Positions 2,866-60,829 of a stretch of 64,000 nt of DNA are shown here, in pieces (positions within the stretch are counted from its first letter, which is position 1; each line of letters begins with the position of its first letter). The notes beneath the pieces were generated by a model that was given only the letters and a program-made list of their open reading frames with translations, made no database searches and was not told where the DNA came from. The stretch is from positions 110,236,001 to 110,300,000 of the forward strand of contig NC_043002.1 of NCBI RefSeq assembly GCF_006345805.1, in the 5' to 3' direction. A program made the position numbers and the translations under genes. Source of the DNA: Octopus sinensis (lineage: Eukaryota).

Positions 2866-4439
2866 ATATAAAACTGAGAATATGTGTCTATCTGTCTGTC
2901 TGTGTGTTTCCCTAAAACTTGAGAACTACACAACCAATTTCATTCAAATTTTACACATGCCTTACTTAGGGTCCATGTAGTTTCAGGGGCAAAAAAATGT
3001 TCAACTTCTTGTCTAGGGCGAGCCCATAGCAATATTATATCTTCTTCACTTTCAGTATTACGTGTTAAAAGTGAAACAAAAACATTTCTCTATTTTATGT
3101 CAGATACTTTCACTTTAACAATAAAAATTAGAGATAATAATAACAATTGAATTATATGTAGTAAGTAATAATTAAAATCAAACTAAAGTATAATATAATA
3201 ATTAAATCGTAATATAACAATTAAAAGTAAAAATAGCAATTCGCATAAAATTGCATCAATGACTTGAACTTGAATAAGTGGTTTTACATGAAGGGGAATA
3301 AATTAAAAATAAAAATAGTGTGCAGAAATGGAATAGTCAAGATGGAGCTGTGCACATACCCTTTACCATGGCTTTTACATCAGATTATCTGCTAATTAGC
3401 TAGCATTAAGTATCTATACGAAGTTTGGATGCATGTAATGTCTGTTTTCTTGAACATCCGCTTCTACTGAGTACTGCTGTTGGTTTATTTCTTATACATA
3501 AAGACTATAGCTTCAACTGCGTACTGCTTTTTGATTCACCGTAAGGTTTGTTATTATTATTACTGTTTAACTATTGTTATCAAGTTTGTTGATTCCTCGT
3601 AAGGGAAACGTTGTTGTGTTGCATTTGTTAAATAATTGTAAACCGTAACCCTCCCCATTTGGGAGAAGGAGCTTTGGTTATTGTTTAAAAATGAATTGTG
3701 TCCCTGTTTGGGGAAATTGACAATATTTTCACCGTTTATACGGAAGCATTTTTGTTAGAATGCCTTCGATAGAAGAAAGTCCAAAAATGAATTTCGCTGC
3801 AGCCGTCGGCGGGCGTGAACTCATTTAAATTGAAATGGAAGAAATACAAATCTAATTCGGATTGATCACCAACAAAGACGGTGAATCTAGGATAACACCA
3901 CCAAACGAAATAAAAAATTAAATTAAAAGAAAAGACTATTGTCTATAAAGTATACAATGTAGAAAAAAAAAAAAGATTTGAACACCTGGAGGAAAGCACC
4001 ATCGAAAAGTGTCTTGGTGCCACTATGAAAGATATCAAGTATCTAACCAGAGGCGGTAAATTTGCCACAATAGAAGCAAGGTTCGAGTCAACAGAGCGTG
4101 CAAAGGAGTACTCGACTCGAACCTTGCAAAGTGGAAATATCTTATTTTTACCTTTATATCTGGGACGTAGGACATCCTGGATAGAAATTAAAAATGTCCC
4201 CCCAGAAGTAGAGGTAGGCTGGATTGTAGTCACATTTCTATACAAGAGTGAGGACAAGATACAATTGATCGAAATTGCAAGTCTGTTATATATTTTGAGT
4301 ATTGTTATCACTAGCGATATCAAGATATTTGTATTTTGTATTTTATGTGTAGATGTAAATATATAGATGTACATGTAATATGTACACATATATACATGCA
4401 CTAGCACTATGACCCAGCAACGCCGGGTCATAATGCTAG
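2862..4439 (+). mobile_element. Non-autonomous Helitron-like element carrying a retroelement ORF1-like fragment
   Basis: 5' tatatataaaactgagaatatgtgtc...(tctg)n start. 3' hairpin gacccagcaacgccgggtc followed by CTAG|T at 4436-4440. Internal decayed reading frame at 3760-4280. Confidence 0.6.
3760..4285 (+). pseudogene. Decayed gag/ORF1-like fragment (L1/Tx1-type non-LTR retrotransposon, tentative)
   Basis: ORF 4025-4366 contains ...LGRRTSWIEIKNVPPEVEVGWI, resembling the 'xIxNVPPEV' RRM-like segment of Tx1/L1 ORF1. An upstream NFAAAV motif and in-frame stops are present. Confidence 0.4.
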
Positions 4440-4545
4440 TATATATATATAGACTTTTTCTATTCCTGAGTGTTATGCTAATACATCTGTTTGTCTTCAT
4501 CTTTTGTTTTTTTCACAAACTCTCCCTACATATATATATATATAT

Positions 4546-5147
4546 CATCATCATCATCATCATCATCATTTAACGTCCGCTTTCCATGCTAGCATGGGTT
4601 GGACGGTTCAACTGGGGTCTGGGGAGCCCGAAAGCTGCACCAGTCCAGTCAGATCTGGCAGTGTTTCTACAGCTGGATGCCCTTCCTAACGCCAACCACT
4701 CCGAGAGTGTAGTGGGTGATTTTATGTGCCACCGACACAGGTGCCAGACGAGGCTGGCAAACGGCCACGCTCGGATGGTGTTTTTTTATGTGCCACCGAC
4801 ACAGGTGCCAGACGAGGCTGGCAGACGGCCACGCTCGGATGGTGTTTTTATGTGCCACCGACACAGGTGCCAGATGAGGCTGGCAAACGGCCACGATCGG
4901 ATGGTGTTTGTTACGTGCCCACAGCACGGAGGCCAGTCGATGCGGTACTGGCTACCGCTACGTTCGGATGGTTTTCCTGTGTGCCACGTGCCACCGGCAC
5001 TGGTACCACAAAGATACAAATTCCATTGATGTTCATCTATTTTGATTTGTTTTGATTTTCACTTGCCTCAACAGGTCTTCACAAGTGTCACAAGAAGGAA
5101 GGTAAGCACAGGTGGACTGACTACGTCCCAGGTAAGGGTCACGGGTT
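4546..5147 (-). mobile_element. RTE-clade LINE 3' end fragment with (GAT)n tail and ~63-bp internal tandem units
   Basis: catcatcatttaacgtccgctttccatgctagcatggg end, homologous to the 3' UTR attached to the RTE RT ORF at 48720-50303. Confidence 0.8.
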
Positions 5148-5164
5148 ATATATATATATATATA

Positions 5165-6050
5165 TATATGTTCTATTTTATTAACATATTATATGACTAA
5201 ACGCACGCACCCTATTAAGTAAGATTGTTCTGTTTATCAAGTTAGCCTTGATATTAACTCTCACGCGACTCTGCATCTTTCTTTCTTTCTCTCCCATTCC
5301 CTTTTTCGTCTTTTTTCCCTCACTTAACTTGTCTCTTCCTCTCTCTCTCATTCTTCATTCTCTCTCTCCCTTTCACCATTCTTCATGGTCTCCTCGCACC
5401 ATTCCCCTTCTTCTCTCTCTTCCTCTTGCTCCTCCTCCCCCATTCCCGTCGTCCATCTGCGACGATACTTCCGTCGTAACTGCTATCCTGTCTTTTCTCG
5501 CCCGCCTTCCAAGGCTACTGGTCGACATTTTTTCTCTCTCGTCGTCCACTATAATCCAGCGTTTGCAATACTTTTTTCGTCTGGCGTTACAGCCCTTCTT
5601 ATCTTGTTCTCCTTGTCCTGTCTCTCACTGTTATATATTTATTTTTCCACTGTTTATATATATATTTTTTTTACTATTTATATGTTTGTACTGTCGTTAC
5701 CGTCTTGCTTTTTTTACCCCTCTGCGAAAAGATCTCAGAATTTTAATTGATTTGCTTTTCGCAGGAAGGAAGTTTTCTTCGAAGTATATGTCTCGCTTTT
5801 ATCCTTCGAAACGTTTAGTAGATGAAACCTTAGCGACTGAAGAAGGGGATTTTTCGTTGTGCTTATTGTCCTGTATCTCCTTTTTTTGCTTGTCTTGTTC
5901 CTTGGTTTGTGTCTATGTTTTTCGTCTCTCTATGTGTTCGACGTCTTTTTGGTGTCCTGTACACATATATGCGTGTATATGTACATGTAGAGGTAGGTAC
6001 GTACATATATGTTTATATATATGCATATGTTCTATTTTATTAACATATAT
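5165..6050 (+). mobile_element. Small PLE/retrozyme-like repeat with short terminal direct repeat, containing a permuted hammerhead
   Basis: atatgttctattttattaacatat occurs at both ends (~5166 and ~6026). The 3' part is homologous to 22517-22830, 23432-23748 and 52000-52420. Confidence 0.55.
5788..5849 (+). ncRNA. Candidate non-circularly permuted hammerhead ribozyme
   Basis: atGTC-tcgct-ttta-tccttc-GAAA-cgt...agcga-CTGAAGA-agggga. Stem I is tcgct/agcga, stem III atgT/Acgt, stem II tcctt/gggga. Confidence 0.55.
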
Positions 6051-6372
6051 ATATATATATATATATACTGCATCAGATTTCTGTCTGAAAAATAAAAAAT
6101 AAAAATAAGAAATAAGTGGAAATTTTACCAGTGAGTGTGTTAAATAATAAGGCACTAAAAGAGAATGACTCTCCCCAGACACAACAGTATATATATATAT
6201 GTATATACATATATATCTTTTAAATTTGTTTATTGGAAGCGTTTTGAATATGCAAATAAAACTTCTGTTGTAAAGATGTTGACTGGTGAACCAATTGTTT
6301 GGGTTTGCATCAACCTGTACCAATATAATGTAGGATAACCATTGTAATAATAACAATAATCCTTGGATGTGT

Positions 6373-6745
6373 GGAGGCGCAATGGTCCAGTGGTTAGGGC
6401 AGTGGACTCGCGGTCATAGGATCGAGGTTTCGATTCCCAGACCGGGTGTTGTGAGTGTTTATTGAGCGAAAACACCTAAATCCCCACGAGGCTCTGGCAG
6501 GGGGTGGTGGTGATCCCTGCTGTACTCTTTCACCACAACTTTCTCTCACGCTTACTTCCTGTTTCTGTTGTACCTGTATTTCAAAGGGCCGGTCTTGTCA
6601 CTCTCTGTGTTCCCCGAGAACTACGTTAAGGGTACACGTGTCTGTGGAGTGCTCAGCCACTTACACGTTAATTTTACGAGCAGGCTGTTCCGTTGATTCG
6701 GATCAACCGGAACCCTCATCGTCGTAACCGACAGAGTGCTTCCCC
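6373..6745 (+). mobile_element. tRNA-derived SINE family 2
   Basis: Head ggaggcgcaatggtccagtggttagggcag...ggtttcgattccc has Pol III A/B-box-like motifs. Six similar copies occur in the window. Confidence 0.85.
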
Positions 6746-6784
6746 AATCCTTTGATGGAATTTATAAATATTTTAATGCATTGC

Positions 6785-7037
6785 TACACATGTTTCCATA
6801 TATCACATGTCTCTTAAGATCACAGTCCATATTCCTGGGATGATTACAGTGTAGTCTGTAGTATCTGTGGGTGTTGGGTAGAGCATCTTCATTTGTTCAG
6901 GCGTTTAATGCTATATCATCTGAAGAAATGAATCCATGAAGATAAATTACCTAATGCCCATGGGTTCTATGGACTACATTGTAATTGTCGCAGGAATATG
7001 GACTGTGATCTTAAGAGACATATGGAAATGTGTGTAA
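6785..7037. repeat. Inverted-repeat (foldback) element, ~70-bp imperfect arms
   Basis: tgtctcttaagatcacagtccatattcctg (~6807) is the reverse complement of caggaatatggactgtgatcttaagagaca (~6991). Confidence 0.7.
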
Positions 7038-7112
7038 TGATGCATCCAAAGATTATTGTTGTTATTACTATATATATACATATATGTATGTATGTAACAA
7101 TAACAATGTATA

Positions 7113-7189
<77 letters not shown>

Positions 7190-7280
7190 CAAAAAGGGTG
7201 AAATATAATTAATTCAATAAAAATTAATAAATTTCACCTAGTAGTTTTATCGGTATGGAAAAGACAATATTTGGTAAGGA

Positions 7281-7400
7281 TTATATTAATTATAATAAAG
7301 GGTTAATTGCAACAAGTTGCTCAAAACCACATACCGAAAATATTCGGTATGTGGTTTTGAGCAACTTGTTGCAATTAACCCTTTATTATAATTAATATAA
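7281..7400. repeat. Perfect palindrome, 58-bp arms with a 4-nt loop
   Basis: 7281-7338 is the exact reverse complement of 7343-7400, with loop aata. Confidence 0.9.
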
Positions 7401-9939: not shown

Positions 9940-10870
9940 TTCATCATCATCATGATCATCGATTAAAATCTGCTTTCCATACTGGCAGGGGTTGGACGGT
10001 TTGACTGAGGACTGGTGAGCCAGAGGCTGGACCAGGCTGAATCTGGTCTGGCAAACATTCTACAGCTGGATGCTCTTCCTAACATCAACCACTCTGAGAG
10101 TGTAGTGGGTGCTTTTTACGTGCCACCGGCACGAGGGCCAGTCTGGTGGTTCTGGCAATAACCATGCTCAAAAGGTGTTTTTATGTGCTACCTGCACAGG
10201 AGCCAGTCTGGTGGCACTGGCAACGACCATGCTCAAATGTTTTTCATGTGCCACCGGTAAGGCAACACTGGCAATGAACATGCTTGAATGGTGCTTTTCA
10301 TGTGTCATCAGCATGAGAGCCAATCCATGGCCCTGGCAACGATCATGCTCGGATGTGCTTTTAATGTTCCACTGGCATGAGTGCCAATCGGGCGGCACTG
10401 TCATCGGCCATGTCAGTAATTTTGATTTTGATTTCTCTTACCTCAATAGGTTTTCACAAGCAAGGTTTATTGTCCAATGAATGAGGGGTATTCATAAATG
10501 GGCTGGTTACACCTACTGGCATAGGCATTGGGCTATGGTCTCACTTGGCTTCTCGGGTCTTCTCAAGCACAGTGTATTTCCAAAGGTCCCGGTCACTAGT
10601 CATTGCCTCAGTAAAGCCTAATGTTCAAAGGTCATGCTTCACCACCTTATCCCAGGTTTTCCTGGGTCTACCTCTTCCACAGATTCCCTCAACTACTAGG
10701 GTGTGACACTTTTTCACACAGCTGTCCTCATTCATTCATAACACATGACCATACAAGTGCAGTCGTCTCTCTTGCACACCACATCTGATGCTTCTTAAAT
10801 CCAACTTTTCTCTCAGGGCGCTTACACTCTGTCATGTATGCACACTGACATTACACATCTAGCAACGTAA
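9940..10870 (-). mobile_element. Older RTE LINE 3' fragment (end of RT ORF and 3' UTR)
   Basis: Homologous to 48720-49570. The GRGRPRKTW-encoding segment lies at ~10650-10680 on the minus strand. Confidence 0.8.
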
Positions 10871-15907: not shown

Positions 15908-17115
15908 CAGGTCATCCCATAAGTTCTATCCAAATTTTGAGTAAAGAAAACAAGTGATCAAATGTTATATTTAATTGAAATTTAATCATCAATGTACTTT
16001 CCCTGATTCTCTATGACTTCCTTCCATCTATTTACAAGCTTTTTAATCGCATCAATGTAAAACTCTTTTGGTTTCAAAGCGAAGAACTCTGAAGTGTCAG
16101 TTTCAACCTCCTCCTGGCTTGCGAAAGTTATGTCCCCCAAATGATTCTGTAAACTACGAAACAAATGGTAGTTTGAAGGAGCAAGGTTGGAAGAATAAGG
16201 TGGATGAGGAATTTTTTCCCAACCAAGCTCTTCAATCTTTGTAGTGCGGCGTCGTGAATTGTCCTGATGAAACAACACTCCTTTTCAATTCACTAAAGCA
16301 CGTCTTTTTTTTTCCTTCAAAGCTTGGTTCAAACACTGTAATTGCTGACAGTAGACTTGAGCATTGATTGTTGCATTAGGTGGTAACAATTCAAAGTGAA
16401 TTACTCCTTTGCAATCCCACAAGATAGAGAGAAGAAATCTTTTTTCCATGAAGTTCCCTTCTCGGTTGTGATTGAGCTTTTTCCCTTTTACCAAGCCACT
16501 GTTTACAACGTTTAACATTTCGATAGAAGACCCATTTTTCGTCACCAGTCTATCCAAAAAGGGTGAAATGAGGTCATGAGAATGGAGAGAAGAACAGATG
16601 TCAACTCAGGGTTTGCAGTTGCTTTTGGACAATTCATGAGGCAGCTATTCTCCAAGTTTAGGGACCTTTCCAAGTTGTTGAAGATGATGATGAACATTTG
16701 ATGGTTGGAATTAAGCTTTATTGCCAATTCTTCAACTGATAATGCAGAATTTTCTTCAAGTAATGCCTCAAGGAGCTTATCATCAAACTCAACAGGACGT
16801 CCTGTTCGATCTTCATCTTCAAGGCTGAAATCTCCACTTTCGAATTTTGCAAACCATCTTCTGCAAGTTCTTTCATTCAAGCATTCTTTCACATAAACTG
16901 AGTGTATGTTTCAAGTCACTTCGGCTGCAGAGTTTCCTTTTTTGTACCCATAAAGCACTATGTGCCTTAAATGCTCTTTAGATACTTCCATGTTAGAAAA
17001 GGGTTTTAATCAAAGAAATTTTAATTCTATTATTCTGTAAAATAATATTTAATTAGTTTAAATGTACACAAATGCATGAAAATAACTTTTAATTCCATTA
17101 GACATTCTAAAATAC
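15908..17115 (-). mobile_element. Mariner (Tc1/mariner DD34D-type) transposon with frameshifted transposase 16991-15982
   Basis: N-terminal HTH segment RRWFAKFESGDFSLEDEDRTGRP, then ILWDCKGVIHFELL, FHQDNSR and LGWEKIPHPPYSSNLAPSNYHLFRSLQ...RWKEVIENQGKYI. Confidence 0.92.
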
Positions 17116-22258: not shown

Positions 22259-22732
22259 TAAACTATATATATATATATAATAATATAATATATAAGTAGT
22301 AGAAATGGCTAAAGAAAATTTTTTGGGCTGCTATTTCTAAAAATTTCAGTATGTGGCAAAGTAAATTATTTTACTGAGCCCTTAATTATATAAAGAATAT
22401 TCTGAATACGCCTTGAATGGTCCTTTTACATACTGAAAAATACTTGGTGAAATTAATTAATAACTAATTGATTTCACCCTTAATTATTGATATATAATAT
22501 ATATATATATATATATGTGATAAATAAAAATATATGCATACATACAAACATATATGTACGTACCTACATCTACATGTATATATACATGCATATATAAATA
22601 TTATACGTGAGTACAGGACATCACAATAAGACGTAGAGAAACGAAAAAACAAACAAAAAACAAAAACAAGAAAACGAAAAACGAAAAACAAGAAAACGAA
22701 AAACATACAGGACGAGCTACACAAGGACAAAA

Positions 22733-22792
22733 CCCCCGTCATCAGCTGTCGCTAGTGGAGTCAGGCATGTTTCGAAGGCATAGACAGAACAC
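22733..22792 (-). ncRNA. Candidate non-circularly permuted hammerhead ribozyme
   Basis: Minus strand reads gtGTT-ctgtc-tatg-ccttc-GAAA-cat...gacag-CTGATGA-cgggg. Stem I ctgtc/gacag, stem III gtgT/Acat. Confidence 0.55.
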
Positions 22793-23648
22793 TAATCCAA
22801 TAGGCCTTCCTGCGAGAGAATTAAAATAAAATTCCAAGCAGCGGGGCAAAATGAGTACGAACACAAACAAACGAAACGTAACATAGACTACAAAATTAAA
22901 ATACATGTACAAAAAATGCAATTAATTACAAAACGAAAAACGAAAAATAAAAAGAGAAATACGATACAGGAAATCAAACACATGAAGACGAACGAAAAAG
23001 CCTTTTTTGGCATAGACAAACAATAAAACTGCAAAAATAAAAATACACGTACAAAAAATACAATTAGTTACAAAACGAGAAAATAAAAAGAATACGATAC
23101 AGGAAATCAACCACACAAGGGGACGAACGAAAAAGCCTTTATGCTGGCGAAGACGAATGGTAAAGTATCAGCGCGTGGAGGCAGTCTTTTCAATAGTGAG
23201 AACCACGTGTAAAGGAATTTTGTTTTATAAGCTGGCAGTAAAGAAGAAGGAAGGAGGAGGGGGACAGGCGGCGAAGAGAGAGGAGGAGTGGGAGGGAGAG
23301 AGAATGAAGAGGTTAAAGCAAAGGGAGAGAGTTCCGCATCTTAAATATAATAATATAAAAAAAGGAACAAAGAAGTGGACCGAAACGACGAATCGGAATG
23401 AACCTGATGCGGGGCGCTGTCAGACAATAAGGTGATAAATAAAAATATATGCATACATACAACATATATGTACGTACCTACATCTACATGTATATATACA
23501 TGCATATATAAATATTATACGTGAGTACAGGACATCACAATAAGACGTAGAAACGGAAAAAACCAAAAAACACAAAACAAGAAAACGAAAAAAAACGAAA
23601 AACAAGAAAACGAAAAACAATTACAGGACGAGCTACACAAGGACAAAA

Positions 23649-23708
23649 CCCCCGTCATCAGCTGTCGCTAGTGGAGTCAGGCATGTTTCGAAGGCATAGA
23701 CAGAACAC
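23649..23708 (-). ncRNA. Candidate non-circularly permuted hammerhead ribozyme (second repeat copy)
   Basis: Identical to 22733-22792. Confidence 0.55.
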
Positions 23709-23928
23709 TAATCCAATAGGCCTTCCTGCGAGAGAATTAAAATAAAATATATTCATATATATATTTCATTATTAGCCATGGGAGCAGTATTAGTTCAGAA
23801 CAGCATTCCATATCTCCTATATATTACTTATAGATATACTATAGAAACCCACAGCACTGCAGTATTTGTCTTGAGAAAGTATCTCGTGCAGACATATTGT
23901 GCAAAACAACACAGATGTATATCAATGG

Positions 23929-34829: not shown

Positions 34830-35392
34830 TGTGTCGGTGGCATAAAAAAAACACCATCCGAGCGTGGCTGTTCGCCAGCCTCGTCTGGCACCTGTGTCGG
34901 TGGCACATAAAAAACACCATCCGAGCTTGGCCGTTCGCCAGCCTCGTCTGGCATCTGTGTCGGTGGCACATAAAAAACACCATCCGAGCGTGGCCGTTCG
35001 CCAGCCTCGTCTGGCACCTGTGTCGGTGGCACATAAAAAACACCATCCGAGCGTGGCTGTTCGCCAGCCCCGTCTGGCACCTGTGTCGGTGGCACAAAAA
35101 AAACACCATCCGAGCGTGGCCGTTCGCCAGCCTCGTCTGGCACCTGTGTCGGTGTCACATAAAAAACACCATCCGAGCGTGGCCGTTCGCCAGCCTCGTC
35201 TGGCACCTGTGTCGGTGGCACATAAAAAGCACCCACTACACTCACGGAGTGGTTGGCATTAGGAAGGGCATCCAGCTGTAGAAACACTGCCAGATCTGAC
35301 TGGCCTGGTGCAGCCTTCGGGCTTCCCAGACCCCAGTTGAACCGTCCAACCATGCTAGCATGGAAAGCGGACGTTAAATGATGATGATGATG
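34830..35392 (+). mobile_element. RTE LINE 3' UTR fragment with an expanded ~63-bp tandem array (about 6.3 units) and (GAT)n tail
   Basis: Unit tgtgtcggtggcacataaaaaacaccatccgagcgtggccgttcgccagcctcgtctggcacc is repeated from 34830 to 35230. Confidence 0.85.
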
Positions 35393-48719: not shown

Positions 48720-50303
48720 TTCATCATCATCGTTTAACGTCCGTTCACCATGCTAGCATGGGTTGGACGGTTCGACTGGGGATCTGGGAAGCCAGAAGGC
48801 TGCACCAGGCTCCAGTCTTATCTGGCAATGTTTCTACAGCTGAATGCCCTTCCTAACGCCAACCACTCCATGAGTGTAGTGGGTGCTTTTTATGTGCCGC
48901 CCGCACAGGTGCCAGGCAAGGCTGGCAACGGCCACAGTCGGATTGGTGCAATTTATGTGCCACCGGCACAGAAGCCAGTCGAGGCGGCGCTGGCATCGGC
49001 CACGATTCGGATAGTGCTTTTTACGTACCACCAGTCCAGGGGTCCTGGCATCTGCCAGGTGCCAGTCATAGGATTGGTTCAATTTCGATTTCGATTTCGA
49101 TTTCACTTGCCCCAACATGTCTTCGCAAGCAAAGGGGGTTGGCATGGGTGCCTGTCGTCGGATGAGGTTCGATATCGACTTCACTTGCTTCAACAGGTCT
49201 TTGTGTCCAAGGGAGGAAAGGCATGCATAAATGGGCTGGGCTCACTTGTCCTGCCTGGTTTTCTCACGTACAGCATATTTCCAAAGGTCTCGGTCGCCGG
49301 TCATTTCCTCAGTGAGGCCTAAAGTTCGAAGGTTGTGCTTCACCACCTCGTCCCAGGTTTTCCTGGGTCTACCTCTTCCACGGGTTCCCTCAACTGCTAG
49401 GGATTGGCACTTTTTCACACACCTATCTTCATCCATTCTCGCCACATGACCATACCAGTGCAATCGTCTTTCTTGCACACCACAACTGATGCTTCTTAGG
49501 TACAACATTTCTCTCAAGGTACTAACGCTCTGTCGAGTATGTACACTGACATTACACATCCATCGGAGCATACCGGCTTCATTCCTCACGAGCTTACGCA
49601 TGTCCTCAGCAGTCATGGCCCATGTTTCACTGCCATCTAGTATGGCTGTTCGTACACATGCATCATACAGTCTGCCTTTTACTCTGAGCGAGAGGCCTTT
49701 AGTCACCAGCAGAGGTAAGAGCTCCCTAAACTTTGCCCAGGCTATTCTTATTCTAGCAGTTACACTTTCAATGCACCCACCCCCACTACTGACTTGGTCA
49801 CCTAGATAACGGAAGCTATCAACTACTTCTAGTTTTTCCCCCAGGAAAGTGACGGAAGTTGTTTTCTGCAGATTTTTGGAGGTTAATGCTCCCGAGCATC
49901 TGCCACATACAAAAACTATCTTCCCAGTTAGCCTACCTTTGACATTGCTGCACCTCTTATGTGTCCATAGCTTACACTGGGTACATCTTATAGAGTTTCT
50001 ACCTACACCTTTTCTACAGATCGAGCAGTGCCATCTTCCTGAAGACATTTGTGGATTGTCTACCTTCCTACTTATTAGTACTTTGGTTTTAGCTAGGTTG
50101 ACTCTAAGGCCCCTCGATTCTAAACCCTCCTTCCACACCTGGAACTTCTCCTCCAGTTCTGATAGTGACTCAGCAATTAGAGCAAGCTCCCAGGGGCAAC
50201 CTGTCTTGAATTCCTCCGTAATTGCTTGGAGGACTATGATAAATAGGAGGGGGCTGAGTACTGAACCCTGGTGGACCCCAACCTCTACTTTGAATTCTTC
50301 TGT
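48720..50303 (-). mobile_element. 5'-truncated RTE-clade LINE (RT C-terminal half, 3' UTR, (GAT)n tail)
   Basis: Open frame 50300-49242 contains GVHQGSVLSPLLF...FRYLG...GSETW...RLHWYGHVARM...GRGRPRKTW. Confidence 0.92.
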
Positions 50304-50366
50304 GTATTATTTAAGCTTATGTCATTTCCTCCATTGTGTTGTTTTTTATAATAGAATAAATATATA

Positions 50367-51960: not shown

Positions 51961-51993
<33 letters not shown>

Positions 51994-52206
51994 ATTTATT
52001 AATAAATAAAATATATGCATATATATATATATACATATATGTACGTACCTACCTCTACATGTATATATACACACATATATGAGTACAGGACACCAAAAAA
52101 ACGTCGAAAACAATGAGAAACGAAAACATGACACAAACCCAAGGAACTAGAGATTTTACTTAAACAACAAAAAAATAGAGTACAGGACAAATAACACAAG
52201 GAAAAA

Positions 52207-52268
52207 ACCCCTTCTTCAGTCGCCATGGTTTCATCTACTCTACGTTTCAAAGGTGAAGGCGAGACGTA
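52207..52268 (-). ncRNA. Candidate non-circularly permuted hammerhead ribozyme (best-paired copy)
   Basis: tacGTC-tcgcc-ttc-accttt-GAAA-cgta-(16 nt)-ggcga-CTGAAGA-aggggt. All three stems pair and the core is intact. It lies within a repeat at ~52000-52420. Confidence 0.62.
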
Positions 52269-52659
52269 TCTTCGATAGAAACTTTCCTTCCTGTGAAAAG
52301 CAAATCAAATAAAATTTGAGATCTTTTTGCAGAGGGGTAAAAATGGTAACAAAAACAGGACAGTAACGACAGTACAAAATATAAGCAGTAAAAGACAGGA
52401 CAAGGAATATATATTGAGGGCATTACTATACATAAATGCCACACACTAGGAGGGACTCTTAAAGTCAAAACTACCAAAATAGATAAACACATTGTACCGA
52501 ATACGAAGGACTGCACGTTGTACCGAGATGCAATTCTAAAAAAAATCCACCTTTTACATAGATATATAAGGATGAACAATTCTGTATACTACGCTGGATA
52601 CATCTTGGTGTTCGTCGGGTATGTTGATTTTTGTTCATTCTCTATGTATCTTAAATTAT

Positions 52660-55083: not shown

Positions 55084-55413
55084 CATCATCATCATCATCA
55101 TCATCATTTAGCGTCCGCTTTCCATGCTAGCATGGGTTGGACGGTTCAACTGGGGTCTGGGAAGCCAGAAGGCTGCACCAGGCCCAGTTTGATCTGGCAA
55201 TGTTTCTACGGCTGGATGCCCTTCCTAACGCCAACCACTCGTGAGTGTAATGGGTGCTTTTTACGTGCCAGACAAGTTTGGCAAACGGTCACGATCGGAT
55301 GGTGCTTTTTATGTGCCACCAGCACGGGGGCCAGGCGAGGCTGGCAACGGCCACGAACGGATGGTGCTTATTACGTGCCACCGGCACGAGGCCAGTCGGG
55401 GCGGCGCTGGCAA
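55084..55413 (-). mobile_element. RTE LINE 3' end fragment
   Basis: (cat)n tail and family 3' UTR. Confidence 0.8.
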
Positions 55414-57269: not shown

Positions 57270-57779
57270 CATTTCTTGCCGAGTGTCATTCCGACTCCTA
57301 GGGCAAAGAAACTCATAGTATACATTGGTAGGCCATTAAACTAAACTCACTAGTTCGTTCATTTTTTTTTTTTTTAAGTTAAATTAAAACACATGGGTAG
57401 TAATAGTTCTCACATCGACAATGCTCTTCTCAATACCTGTGATGTACCAGTTAAGACAATCTTTTGCACTTCTTGCAGGGATGGTAAGCCAGGGATCATT
57501 CTCTTATAATTTTCGGTTTCCTTCTTGATCATTCCTAGTGCTCCTACGTTCACTGGTATTGTAACCGCCTTGAGATGCCACATTTTCTCAATTTCAATGA
57601 GTAGGTCTTTATATTTTCTGAGCTTGTCAAACTCTTTCGTCGAGATATTATGATCACAGGGGATGCTCATGTCGATCAATAAGCAAACTTTATTGTTTTG
57701 GTCTTTCACAACAATATCTGGTTTAATGGCTTTGATGGTTCGGTCTGTATGTACTGGAAAGTCCCACAGAATCGTTACA

Positions 57780-57780
<1 letters not shown>
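57270..57780 (-). mobile_element. R4/Dong-like non-LTR retrotransposon 3' fragment (restriction-like endonuclease)
   Basis: ILWDFPVHTDRTIKAIKPDIVVKD...LIDMSIP...KLRKYKDL...GALG carries the PD..D RLE motif. Confidence 0.85.
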
Positions 57781-57834
<54 letters not shown>

Positions 57835-60829
57835 GTCTTTGCACAGCTTCTAATGCTGGAGATATACTATGGTGTCAACTGTTCACTACCAGTGAACTAA
57901 GGTAACACCTCTTATTTTTCACTCACCTTCCGAAGTATTCAAGCAGTTCCAAGCAGTGCAGTTTTCTGCAAGTGCTCCACCTTTATTGCATCCCCTATTT
58001 TTTCCATATACTTCTCAAGATTTTTACTCACTGTTCCCAGGGCTCTGATAATTATTGGTACTACTACCACCTTTTTTATCAACCACAACTGCTAACCTCC
58101 CAAGCTAATCTGTCATATTTATCTACTTTTCTTTCTTCCTTATCGCATACCTTGTTGTCAGCTGGGCATGCTATATCTATGATCCAGCATAGTTTGCTTT
58201 CTTTCTCAAGACTATGTCTAGCTTCCTATTCTCTATCTCATGGTCGCACTGAATCAGAAAATCCCACAGGATCTTTGCATTATCATTTTCGATGATGCCT
58301 TCGGGTTTGTGGTCATACCAATTTTTTGCTCTGTCAAGTCCATACATGTTGCAAAGTGTCCAATAGACAAGCCTTGCTATATTGTCGTGGCATCTCTTAT
58401 ACTCCTTCTGGGCTAGTGGCATACATTGACTGGCAATATACCATATGGTTTTACCATTTTGTCCACAGATTCTGCACTTAACACTTTCTGATGTATTGTC
58501 TACTCTGTATTTTATGTAGTTTGTTCTTAGGCAGCTCTTGGGTAGCACAGATTAGAGCCTCCGTTTCCAGTTTTAAATCACTTTTAGTCATCCACAGCCA
58601 TCTTTTTTTCTCTGTCTGTCTTATCTTCAACATCCCTATGAAATTGCCCATGCATTCTTTTCTTTACCCACCTATTTTCAGTTTCATTTGTTTTCAATTG
58701 CTTGTACAGTGCTTTATCTTTGCAAACTTTCATCCTGCACAAGCCTGACCGTCTTACTTCTAATAATAGTGGTTTTTACATACCATGCTATGTTGTTTCC
58801 TTCTGCTCTAATGCTGTGTTTGCATCCACTAAGTCCTCTTCATCCAATTTTTCTTGGTACATACAGTCTGTCTGTGTCACATTTTGGGTGGAGTGTCCCA
58901 TATCTAGTTAGCAACTTCCTTGTCTTTCTGCCTAAGCTGTTTAGTTCATCTACTGTCCATGCGATTTCCCTGGCTCCATATCCAAGGAGTGAAACCGCCC
59001 AGGTGTTGATAGCTTTAATCTTATTCCATCCGTTTAATTTCGACTTAAGGAACAGTCTCAGTCTGCACATATACTCCACCTTAAATTTTCCTGTCATTTC
59101 TTTCTCCATCAATTTATCCATTTCCAAAATTCCCAAGTACTTATAGCCCATCTCTTCTATCTGCTTCATAACCTCCCCCAACAGTATCGATAGCCCATCC
59201 ATACATTTGATTTTGCCTCTCTTCAATACTAACACTCCACACTTTTTCAGTCTGAACTCCATTCTGATATCAGCACTGAAAGTATACACCATATCAATGA
59301 GGGAACTGACTTGGGCTTCATCTTTACCATAAAGTTTGAGGTCATCCATGAATAACAAGTGGTTGACTTTTTGTTGGTGGCTTTTGAATATATACCCAGC
59401 TTTATCTTTCCTCACAACTAGTGTTAGTGGTATCAAGCACAGTACAAAGATCAGTGGGGATAGGCAGTCCCCTTGGAAGATACCCCTCCTGATTTCTACT
59501 GTCCTTAAACTTCTTCCGTATGCTGTCAGGTCCGTCCTCCAATTCGTCAAACTTTTTCCAAGCAATTGCTCAACATTTGATGCAATGCCAAACAGATTCA
59601 TACATTCCTTAATCCAAGAATGTGGGATCATATTGTATGCCTTAAGATAGTTAATTCATGACAAGGCTAAGTTTGTCCATGAAAAGATGATGGATTGTAT
59701 CTTTTCTTTCCTTGAACTTGTACTTGGCATTCATGTTTCTCAAAGTCAAAAAGCAATGATGAGGAGCCATTTTTTGGAAGAGTCCAAATTTGATTTTTGA
59801 CAAACTCAACTTCCTTGATGTGATTTCAGTGGTGCATCCCCTCATACTTTAGTTCAATGAATTCATGATAAGAACAATTCCAACTATTTTCCTGCAGCCC
59901 ATAATCTACAAATGAGGATCCATATCATATGCTTTCTGGTAGTCTATCTACACCATCCCTAAGTCTGTTTTGTGCTTTTTGCAGTGTTTTATCGATCGGT
60001 GGTTAATCTTGGTTTCCCTGCATCTACATTTGTAGACTTTAACCAGAAGAAACAACTCTTCTGATATGAATATTCTGGTCCTTGAACTCACACATTGCAT
60101 CTATCAGTATTTCAGCAACCAGCTTCCACATGACAGGCAGTCAGAATATTGGTCTAAAATAGTCAACAGCATTTCCCTTGATACTACTTTCTGGTACATT
60201 ACTTTTCTGCCCCCCAGTCAACCAACTTAGGATTTCTGTGTGATTTTGATGTAATAAGCATAACTGTTCTGCAATCATTTATTAACATTCAGTAAATTTC
60301 TTCACCCAGTATCCCTGAACTCAATTTGGGCTTGCTGTTTCCCTCTTGTTCATCTTCCAACTTATACATCCAACATCCTCCTTGTTTATCTCAATATCTT
60401 CTTGTAGAGGATTTATACTTATTTCATGTTACATAGCCACTGTGCGTTAGTGTTGTGTTTCTTCTTCCCTCATATCCCATTCCCAAATCTTTGTCTATCC
60501 TCTGCATTTGTGGTGTCTGTTTCTCTGTTTATTTCTTGATAAAATCTTTCTTGGTCAACTTTGAAGAGTCTGTTTTATCTGTTTTATTCTCTTTGAATCT
60601 CTCATCATATCGAGCAAGTTTTGCTCTCTTGGCTTGCACCCACTGTTTTAGTTCCTCAATTACTACCAGTAACCTTCTGAAATCAATACTGAACTTTTGT
60701 TTCAGCATGTCATACTTGTGATAATTCTGCAGTTCTCCTTTCCTTCTTTCAGTTACTGACATTAATTCCTTTTTATGCCTCCAAATATCTTTCTCTTCCA
60801 CCATGGTTCTTTGTTCACCCTTCTATTCT

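Follow-up and report, generated by a model that had tools for sequence, protein, structure and literature searches.

A candidate type-SGC permuted hammerhead ribozyme in non-coding Penelope-like repeats of Octopus sinensis

The motif and its carrier repeats

Within the window, by which we mean the whole 64,000-nt stretch of Octopus sinensis DNA analyzed here, positions 5788-5849 read as the three conserved blocks of a hammerhead ribozyme, arranged in the order cleavage site (GUC), GAAA and CUGAAGA. The order site-GAAA-CUGANGA is that of the non-circular permutation type SGC, in which three stems are predicted to cross. The motif lies in a non-coding repeat that we term family A, and motifs of the same order occur in two further repeats, families B and C (Table 1).

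A two-strand descriptor scan of the window gave exactly four matches (+ 5790, - 52265, - 23706 and - 22790), and the core, comprising CUGANGA, GAAA and NUH with A15.1-U16.1, is complete in all four. The same kind of scan found none of the circular block orders (CGS, GSC and SCG) around this core in the window, and an Rfam scan of the window returned no hammerhead at E up to 1, the output being microsatellite-driven miRNA and snoRNA noise only. A stricter descriptor was applied to 464 kb, made up of the window and 40 stretches of 10 kb each. The four SGC matches obtained all lie inside the window, with none in the 400 kb outside it, none in the reversed 464 kb and none in each of three shuffles.

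The initial annotation had reported diverged copies at 52.2, 22.7 and 23.7 kb. These exist, on the minus strand, but those at 22.7 and 23.7 kb belong to one family; since the two family-B matches are identical tandem units, the window holds three independent variants. The pairings that it listed are all present, with stem I reading ucgcu/agcga at 5.8 kb, ucgcc/ggcga at 52.2 kb and cuguc/gacag at 22.7 and 23.7 kb, and stem III reading augU/Acgu, uacgU/Acgua and gugU/Acau. Its observation of conserved spacing is borne out by linkers of 10, 9 and 9 nt and of 20, 20 and 19 nt in the window copies. Two copies carry minority variants. At 5.8 kb the U.G pair of stem III is rare, with C-G in its place in 40 of 42 family-A descriptor matches (a count in which overlapping loci enter twice); at 52.2 kb position 11.1 is a U, where 31 of 35 C/F3 contexts have C.

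Table 1. Repeats and predicted ribozyme elements in the window
Feature	Position	Strand	Remarks
Family A non-coding repeat unit (~860 bp)	5194..6053	+	Ribozyme ~210 nt before (TA)n end; ends approximate
3' end of preceding 5'-truncated unit (partial tandem)	5147..5193	+	Last 47 nt; self-match of A 1-47 with 860-907
Block S	5788..5797	+	Stem III 5' strand 5788-5791; GUC 5790-5792; stem I 5' strand UCGCU 5793-5797
Block S, predicted cut	after C5792	+	Prediction from sequence
Block G	5804..5814	+	Stem II strand CUUC 5804-5807 (C11.1 = 5807); GAAA 5808-5811; stem III 3' strand 5811-5814
Block C	5832..5848	+	Stem I 3' strand AGCGA 5832-5836; CUGAAGA core 5837-5843
Block C, rest	5844; 5845-5848	+	Extra A 5844, an extra nucleotide as in PLE hammerheads; stem II strand GGGG 5845-5848
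Family B partial tandem	22517..23748	-	Truncated unit plus full ~916-bp unit; ends at (TA)n
Family B type-SGC ribozyme, downstream unit	22733..22792	-	GUU site; stem I CUGUC/GACAG; CUGAUGA; extra C
Family B type-SGC ribozyme, upstream 5'-truncated unit	23649..23708	-	Identical to downstream one, 916 bp apart
Family C 5'-truncated repeat copy	51989..52406	-	Ends at (TA)n; 82% identity to family A over ~400 nt
Family C type-SGC ribozyme	52208..52268	-	GUC site; stem I UCGCC/GGCGA; U replaces C11.1 in this copy

The 3' parts of the three families are homologous (A-C 82%, A-B 72%). Copies have variable 5' ends and a fixed 3' end at (TA)n, at a distance from the core of 211-217 nt in 22 of 30 loci of family A and of 185-199 nt in 21 of 27 loci of family C. 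Loci with same-strand tandems number 12 of 30 in family A, where the spacing is 832-874 bp, 6 of 30 in family B and 2 of 27 in family C. The window repeats encode no protein. They have the anatomy of a non-autonomous Penelope-like element, with partial head-to-tail tandems, 5' truncation, a fixed 3' microsatellite end and no RT ORF; partial tandems, 5' truncation and a preference for (TA)n are described for Penelope-like elements (PMC8557442).

In this 2.7-Gb genome the top 40 matches for each window variant are 97-100% identical, and those for the ribozyme region of family A are 98-100% identical. First-look candidates for the three variants number 1,477, 1,254 and 2,387, which are not copy numbers. 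A genome-wide core-spacing pattern gave 31,718 matches compared with 1,750 in the reversed control, some places being counted twice through its variable gaps, and a narrower pattern for one family group gave 1,494 compared with 0. The genome holds predicted SGC motifs in thousands of copies, in many diverged families.

Splice-like motifs were seen within the unit. A donor-like GTAAG lies ~25 nt after the unit start in A, C and D (window 5219-5223), and a pyrimidine tract with CAG/GAAG lies ~28 nt before the cut site (window 5757-5768), at the same places in B, C and F5. These donor-like and acceptor-like motifs suggest an intron of the Penelope type within the unit. The AG of this putative intron is missing in some copies. 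None of the runs listed as containing the sequence is recorded as RNA. In contigs from seven runs guessed to be RNA and one without a label, the unit is covered, reads continue through its junction and through the predicted cut site alike, and no splice-like joint occurs. Contigs that cross the junction are uninformative on circles or cleavage because the junction also exists in DNA.

Pairing in stems I, III and II

By themselves the three variants of the window are thin evidence for covariation. The comparison between families uses 14 hand-picked representatives, 13 of which come from 63 clusters of 166 core-only matches, the other being the majority family-C copy; the clusters left out were near-duplicates, decayed copies and chance matches. 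Watson-Crick pairs fill 64 of 70 stem I positions, compared with 2.12 of 5 when strands are taken from different families, and this level was reached by 0 of 100,000 permutations, a figure that overstates significance because the families are related. Stem III has 49 of 56 Watson-Crick pairs, a count that is partly circular. The position of the site deduced from stem III alone equals that deduced from stem I alone in 12 of the 14. Stem I pairs among the fetched loci include UUGUC/GACAA, UCAAG/CUUGA, UCGAG/CUCGA, UCAGA/UCUGA and CUGCC/GGCAG.

The core-spacing search patterns imposed no pairing rule. The core itself was part of them, so its conservation is not independent evidence. Taken without selection, the first consecutive core-spacing matches comprise 23 distinct ones, of which 13 pass for stems I and III together, compared with a shuffled mean of 0.37. 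MAFFT alignments of two family groups were made without fitting to structure. In that of the window's group (13 sequences), two-sided changes occur at four of five pairs in stem I, three of five in stem III and none of four in stem II, and 96% of cells are paired compared with 36-57% when the partners are slid. Two-sided changes occur at five of six stem I pairs in the second group (16 sequences).

These pairings could instead be chance complementarity spread by the copying of the repeat, with no selected RNA structure. High copy number reflects amplification rather than selection, and the window provides only three independent variants. Yet the pairings lay outside the search patterns and two-sided changes hold across families, while reversed and shuffled controls gave nothing; the unselected check and the two alignment groups already largely refute this explanation, and we consider it highly improbable. 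The comparisons support the view that, between families, stems I and III conserve structure rather than sequence. The earlier claim that structure rather than sequence is under selection is supported for stems I and III, with two-sided changes in unfitted alignments; stem II shows no such changes. Families with a broken stem I or III, or lacking NUH, were not found among the representatives tested.

Stem II depends on the register chosen. The mismatch at 10.1/11.1 noted at first is a register error, and placing one extra nucleotide after CUGANGA restores a G-C pair. In this +1 register four of four stem II pairs starting with G-C are formed in 22 of 22 A, 23 of 24 B/F5, 30 of 35 C/F3 and 11 of 23 D/F8 contexts, sets that lean towards near-identical top matches. 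The direct register, with four of four pairs in 0 A, 0 B/F5, 4 C/F3 and 0 D/F8 contexts, was rejected. We infer that stem II is formed in the register with the extra nucleotide. The same extra nucleotide, between 9 and 10.1, is found in three of nine canonical-order matches of the fetched loci, and it is listed together with G10.1-C11.1 as a trait of metazoan PLE hammerheads (PMC4209133). In family B it is a C, which is reported to be harmful in a viroid hammerhead (PMC3705267).

Stem II of the window copy has 4 bp, two of them G.U. In E/F13 a shift of 5 nt is seen in 10 of 19 contexts, and in the +1 register stem II is formed in none of five F11 and one of 34 Naiad-type contexts. Nor did we find the fourth helix, between the free ends of stems I and II. 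This stem I-II interaction is described as necessary in the published SGC ribozymes (PMC10085705); here the best duplex beats shuffles in one of 13 families, and we reject the helix as unsupported in the other 12. Nested folding of the window copy produces a rival hairpin that conceals the CUUC-GAA strand.

These properties bear on the possibility that the motif is a dead or nearly dead hammerhead relic, whose stems I and III serve as a binding or priming structure for a Penelope reverse transcriptase. Several families are still spreading although their stem II is gone or shifted, and most bivalve and hemichordate Naiad tails lack the motif by eye, yet Naiads are reported to proliferate (PMC8557442). 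Against a relic, NUH stands directly 5' of stem I in the representatives, although the site could have been located from either stem, and G10.1-C11.1 is kept in the young families A, B and C. We regard a relic as quite unlikely.

A copy of the GAAA block, CUUCGAAG, was observed at window 5777-5784, just upstream of the site, and likewise in C, F3 and D. It may be a duplication relic, and it is able to form a rival hairpin with 5805-5811. A further observation concerns families E, F11 and F12 (L038, L172, L186, L195), which are the commonest SGC-like families among the first core-spacing matches. Their stems I and III are kept, and either a possible stem II is separated from CUGANGA by 5 nt, in many cases with NNGA as the last letters of this spacer, or stem II is absent. 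They are possibly a further core variant.

Related ribozymes and Naiad elements

The first non-circular permutations of an RNA fold came from environmental sequences and were described in 2023, when Eckert et al. defined type SGC from metatranscriptomes and showed in vitro cleavage for five such RNAs (PMC10085705). That report finds no SGC or CSG form in the genome of a known organism and leaves the origin open; the CSG permutation is reported from two metagenome sequences only. The present motif and type-SGC/HRIMA-1 share the block order, all core nucleotides, a 5-bp stem I and a short linker between the stem I and stem II strands (PMC10085705). They differ in setting, HRIMA-1 being metatranscriptomic whereas the copies here lie in chromosomal repeats of retroelement type and have one more nucleotide after CUGANGA. 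Stem II is here G.U-rich or displaced, with no supported fourth helix, and the first linker is 6 nt in family A and typically 3 there (PMC10085705). Our literature search, made outside subscription journals, found no earlier account of SGC or CSG hammerheads from animal genomes or from Naiads, and PMC13725137, in its available part, cites alternative permutations only in passing.

The type I hammerheads of PLE pseudo-LTRs (Cervera and de la Pena 2014, PMC4209133) resemble these motifs in lying near the 3' end of Penelope-like repeats, in the extra nucleotide 9/10.1 with G10.1-C11.1 and a short stem I, and in forming many diverged families per genome. Their order is C-G-S, whereas that found here is S-G-C, and their stem III is minimal, palindromic and dimer-needing, in contrast to the 4-5 bp of covarying stem III here (PMC4209133). 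Animal non-LTR retrozymes, which are derived from Penelope-like elements, likewise consist of non-coding tandem units with one hammerhead each (bioRxiv 10.64898/2026.07.22.740005). SGC units would escape the search by which those were found, because its description gives type I descriptors only (bioRxiv 10.64898/2026.07.22.740005).

Penelope hammerheads are said to cut as dimers, a result attributed to Luense et al. in 2017. Applied here, the blocks would act only between copies, with the site and GAAA of one unit meeting the CUGANGA of another in a dimer or multimer. Tandem units are common, stem II is weak and the fourth helix unsupported, a monomer requires three crossing helices, and metazoan PLE hammerheads act as dimers with low activity (PMC4209133). 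But stem III is mostly non-palindromic and has a dedicated, covarying upstream partner, and the linkers are tightly kept, at 8-11 and 18-21 nt in 13 of the 14 representatives. A canonical or dimeric reading through the GUH right after GAAAC was rejected, as there is no stem I partner downstream. Finally, published SGC RNAs cleave as single-motif constructs during their transcription (PMC10085705). We consider action between copies only unlikely and favor a fold completed within one unit.

Naiads are autonomous elements of 3.4-4.4 kb, described by Craig et al. 2021 (PMC8557442) as without canonical hammerheads, some being flagged 'HHR_half_core'. We read by eye the last ~300 nt of 53 published Naiad consensuses (supplement File S5, PMC8557442). 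Five tails have SGC with good stems I and III and a poor stem II, two from octopus and three from the coral Acropora, the latter with a 10-bp stem III. Five others, all nematode (Nbra 1-3, Hcon and Hpol), have a complete CSG hammerhead with three Watson-Crick stems. Among the rows of the supplement seen, the half-core flag stands on three of these ten. The remaining 43 tails have by eye no clear permuted form, two being partial.

A short motif from an octopus Naiad tail occurs 350 times in this genome, compared with 0 in the control, and a 67-aa open stretch upstream of one of these occurrences gave 89 matches as a query. Among the top 30 Naiad-like ORF-remnant loci, an SGC ribozyme follows in the sense orientation, 0.46-1.4 kb downstream, at 12, or at 11 of 29 when the seed is left out; a 13th script match is chance by eye, and there are also four upstream and three antisense loose core matches. 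The resident Naiad ORFs are decayed. The predicted SGC fold is common to the 3' ends of these decayed Naiads and to those of published octopus and coral Naiads.

The window repeats are like Naiads in their preference for (TA)n, partial tandems and 5' truncation (PMC8557442). Unlike them, they have no ORF with an N-terminal GIY-YIG and a C-terminal RT, and share only the type of ribozyme with the 3' ends. In the fetched loci, BLAST did not match families A, B and C to the ribozyme stretch of the Naiad type, and no homology of the window repeats to the Naiad 3' end was found outside the ribozyme pattern.

Another Penelope protein probably moves family A, because the Naiad copies are decayed and family A is young. 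We presume the clades of two candidate drivers to be Hydra-like and Neptune-like, names assigned on the basis of motifs and of a comparison by eye with the supplementary consensuses of Craig et al. The Hydra-like family (L231-L237) is abundant and young, with open frames near 900 aa and reaching 923 aa, but was rejected as the driver, for it carries a canonical-order core with a long stem II in its terminal repeat and not SGC. The Neptune-like family (L287-L295) is also young. Its open frames include ones of 784 aa and reach 789 aa, a second ORF lies upstream, and its tandem units measure 4.4 kb. It too was rejected, there being no SGC in the 14 stretches fetched, and no intact hammerhead core was seen in its 3' region. 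A copy of the family-A type lies just past the element end at two of 30 GIY-YIG loci; these two are probably separate insertions, since the sister copies stop at that point. Among the Hydra-like, Neptune-like, GIY-YIG and Naiad-like loci, the clades sampled, there was no autonomous element whose end is an A/B/C-type unit, and Pfam gave nothing useful.

A proposed cycle of cleavage and insertion

The order of the blocks, stems I and III, the anatomy of the repeat and the link between the fold and Naiad ends are established at the level of sequence. We put at roughly 0.7 the probability of the following reading: an SGC hammerhead, carried by a non-coding Penelope-like repeat, cuts its own transcript after C5792 and takes part in a cycle of circularization and reverse transcription. 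Since the pairings change in step between repeat families, the motif likely cuts the RNA of a Penelope-type element.

In the proposed fold, a loop closed by stem III would contain the cut site together with a single strand of stem I and another of stem II. The strand bearing CUGANGA would pair back into this loop, creating three mutually crossing short helices, of which the stem II pairing is the one we infer. Cutting is likely to be slow, or aided by a partner copy or a protein. Head-to-tail copies cut once per unit would release monomers of ~860 nt, and these would likely be ligated to circles, following the model for PLE hammerheads (PMC4209133). The circles would then likely be copied by the RT/GIY-YIG protein of an autonomous, (TA)n-targeting Penelope-like element, and reverse transcription of more than one unit into (TA)n targets would generate 5'-truncated tandem insertions such as those observed (PMC4209133).

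Naiad is the likely source lineage of the fold. Speculatively, the permuted order may have originated in tandem canonical units, with the site, GAAA and CUGANGA blocks taken from successive units. An origin from tandem units fits with the decayed, CUUCGAA-like GAAA-block copy that precedes the site in A, C, F3 and D.

A broader proposal, to which we give even odds, is that non-circularly permuted hammerheads are the missing ribozymes of Naiads and of their non-coding derivatives across animals. They would be active as SGC in octopus and corals and as CSG in nematodes, in tens of thousands of copies, and would have arisen from tandem, dimer-type Penelope hammerheads by the loss of alternate blocks. 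If true, non-circular RNA permutation would gain its first home in genomes and a route by which it evolved. The finding joins the non-circular hammerheads with the unexplained 'half cores' of Naiads. It would also offer a natural covariation series and a path from dimeric to permuted hammerheads that can be tested, and would explain how a large class of genomic ribozymes escapes Rfam and the usual descriptors.

Some further features were observed in the window and elsewhere in the genome. Window 4240-7400 is 99.7% identical across 3.1 kb to a stretch ~170 kb away (L003, G000:C6:110068831-110071990). By our reading the pair is a recent segmental duplication (or an assembly duplicate), the rare stem III variant being common to both. 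At another locus (L181-L182, G000:C1:5161001-5181000) a composite array is made up of two different SGC families in alternation, spaced 3-5 kb apart. A tandem unit of 62-65 bp lies inside another dispersed repeat family, at window 4715-4919, 10108-10389, 34830-35233 and 55279-55402. Fragments like those of transposable elements are found at window 49242-50306 (-), 57410-59655, 16542-16910 (-) and 3914-4366 (+), and we take them to resemble RTE/R4-type non-LTR reverse transcriptases, a mariner-like transposase and a gag-like frame.
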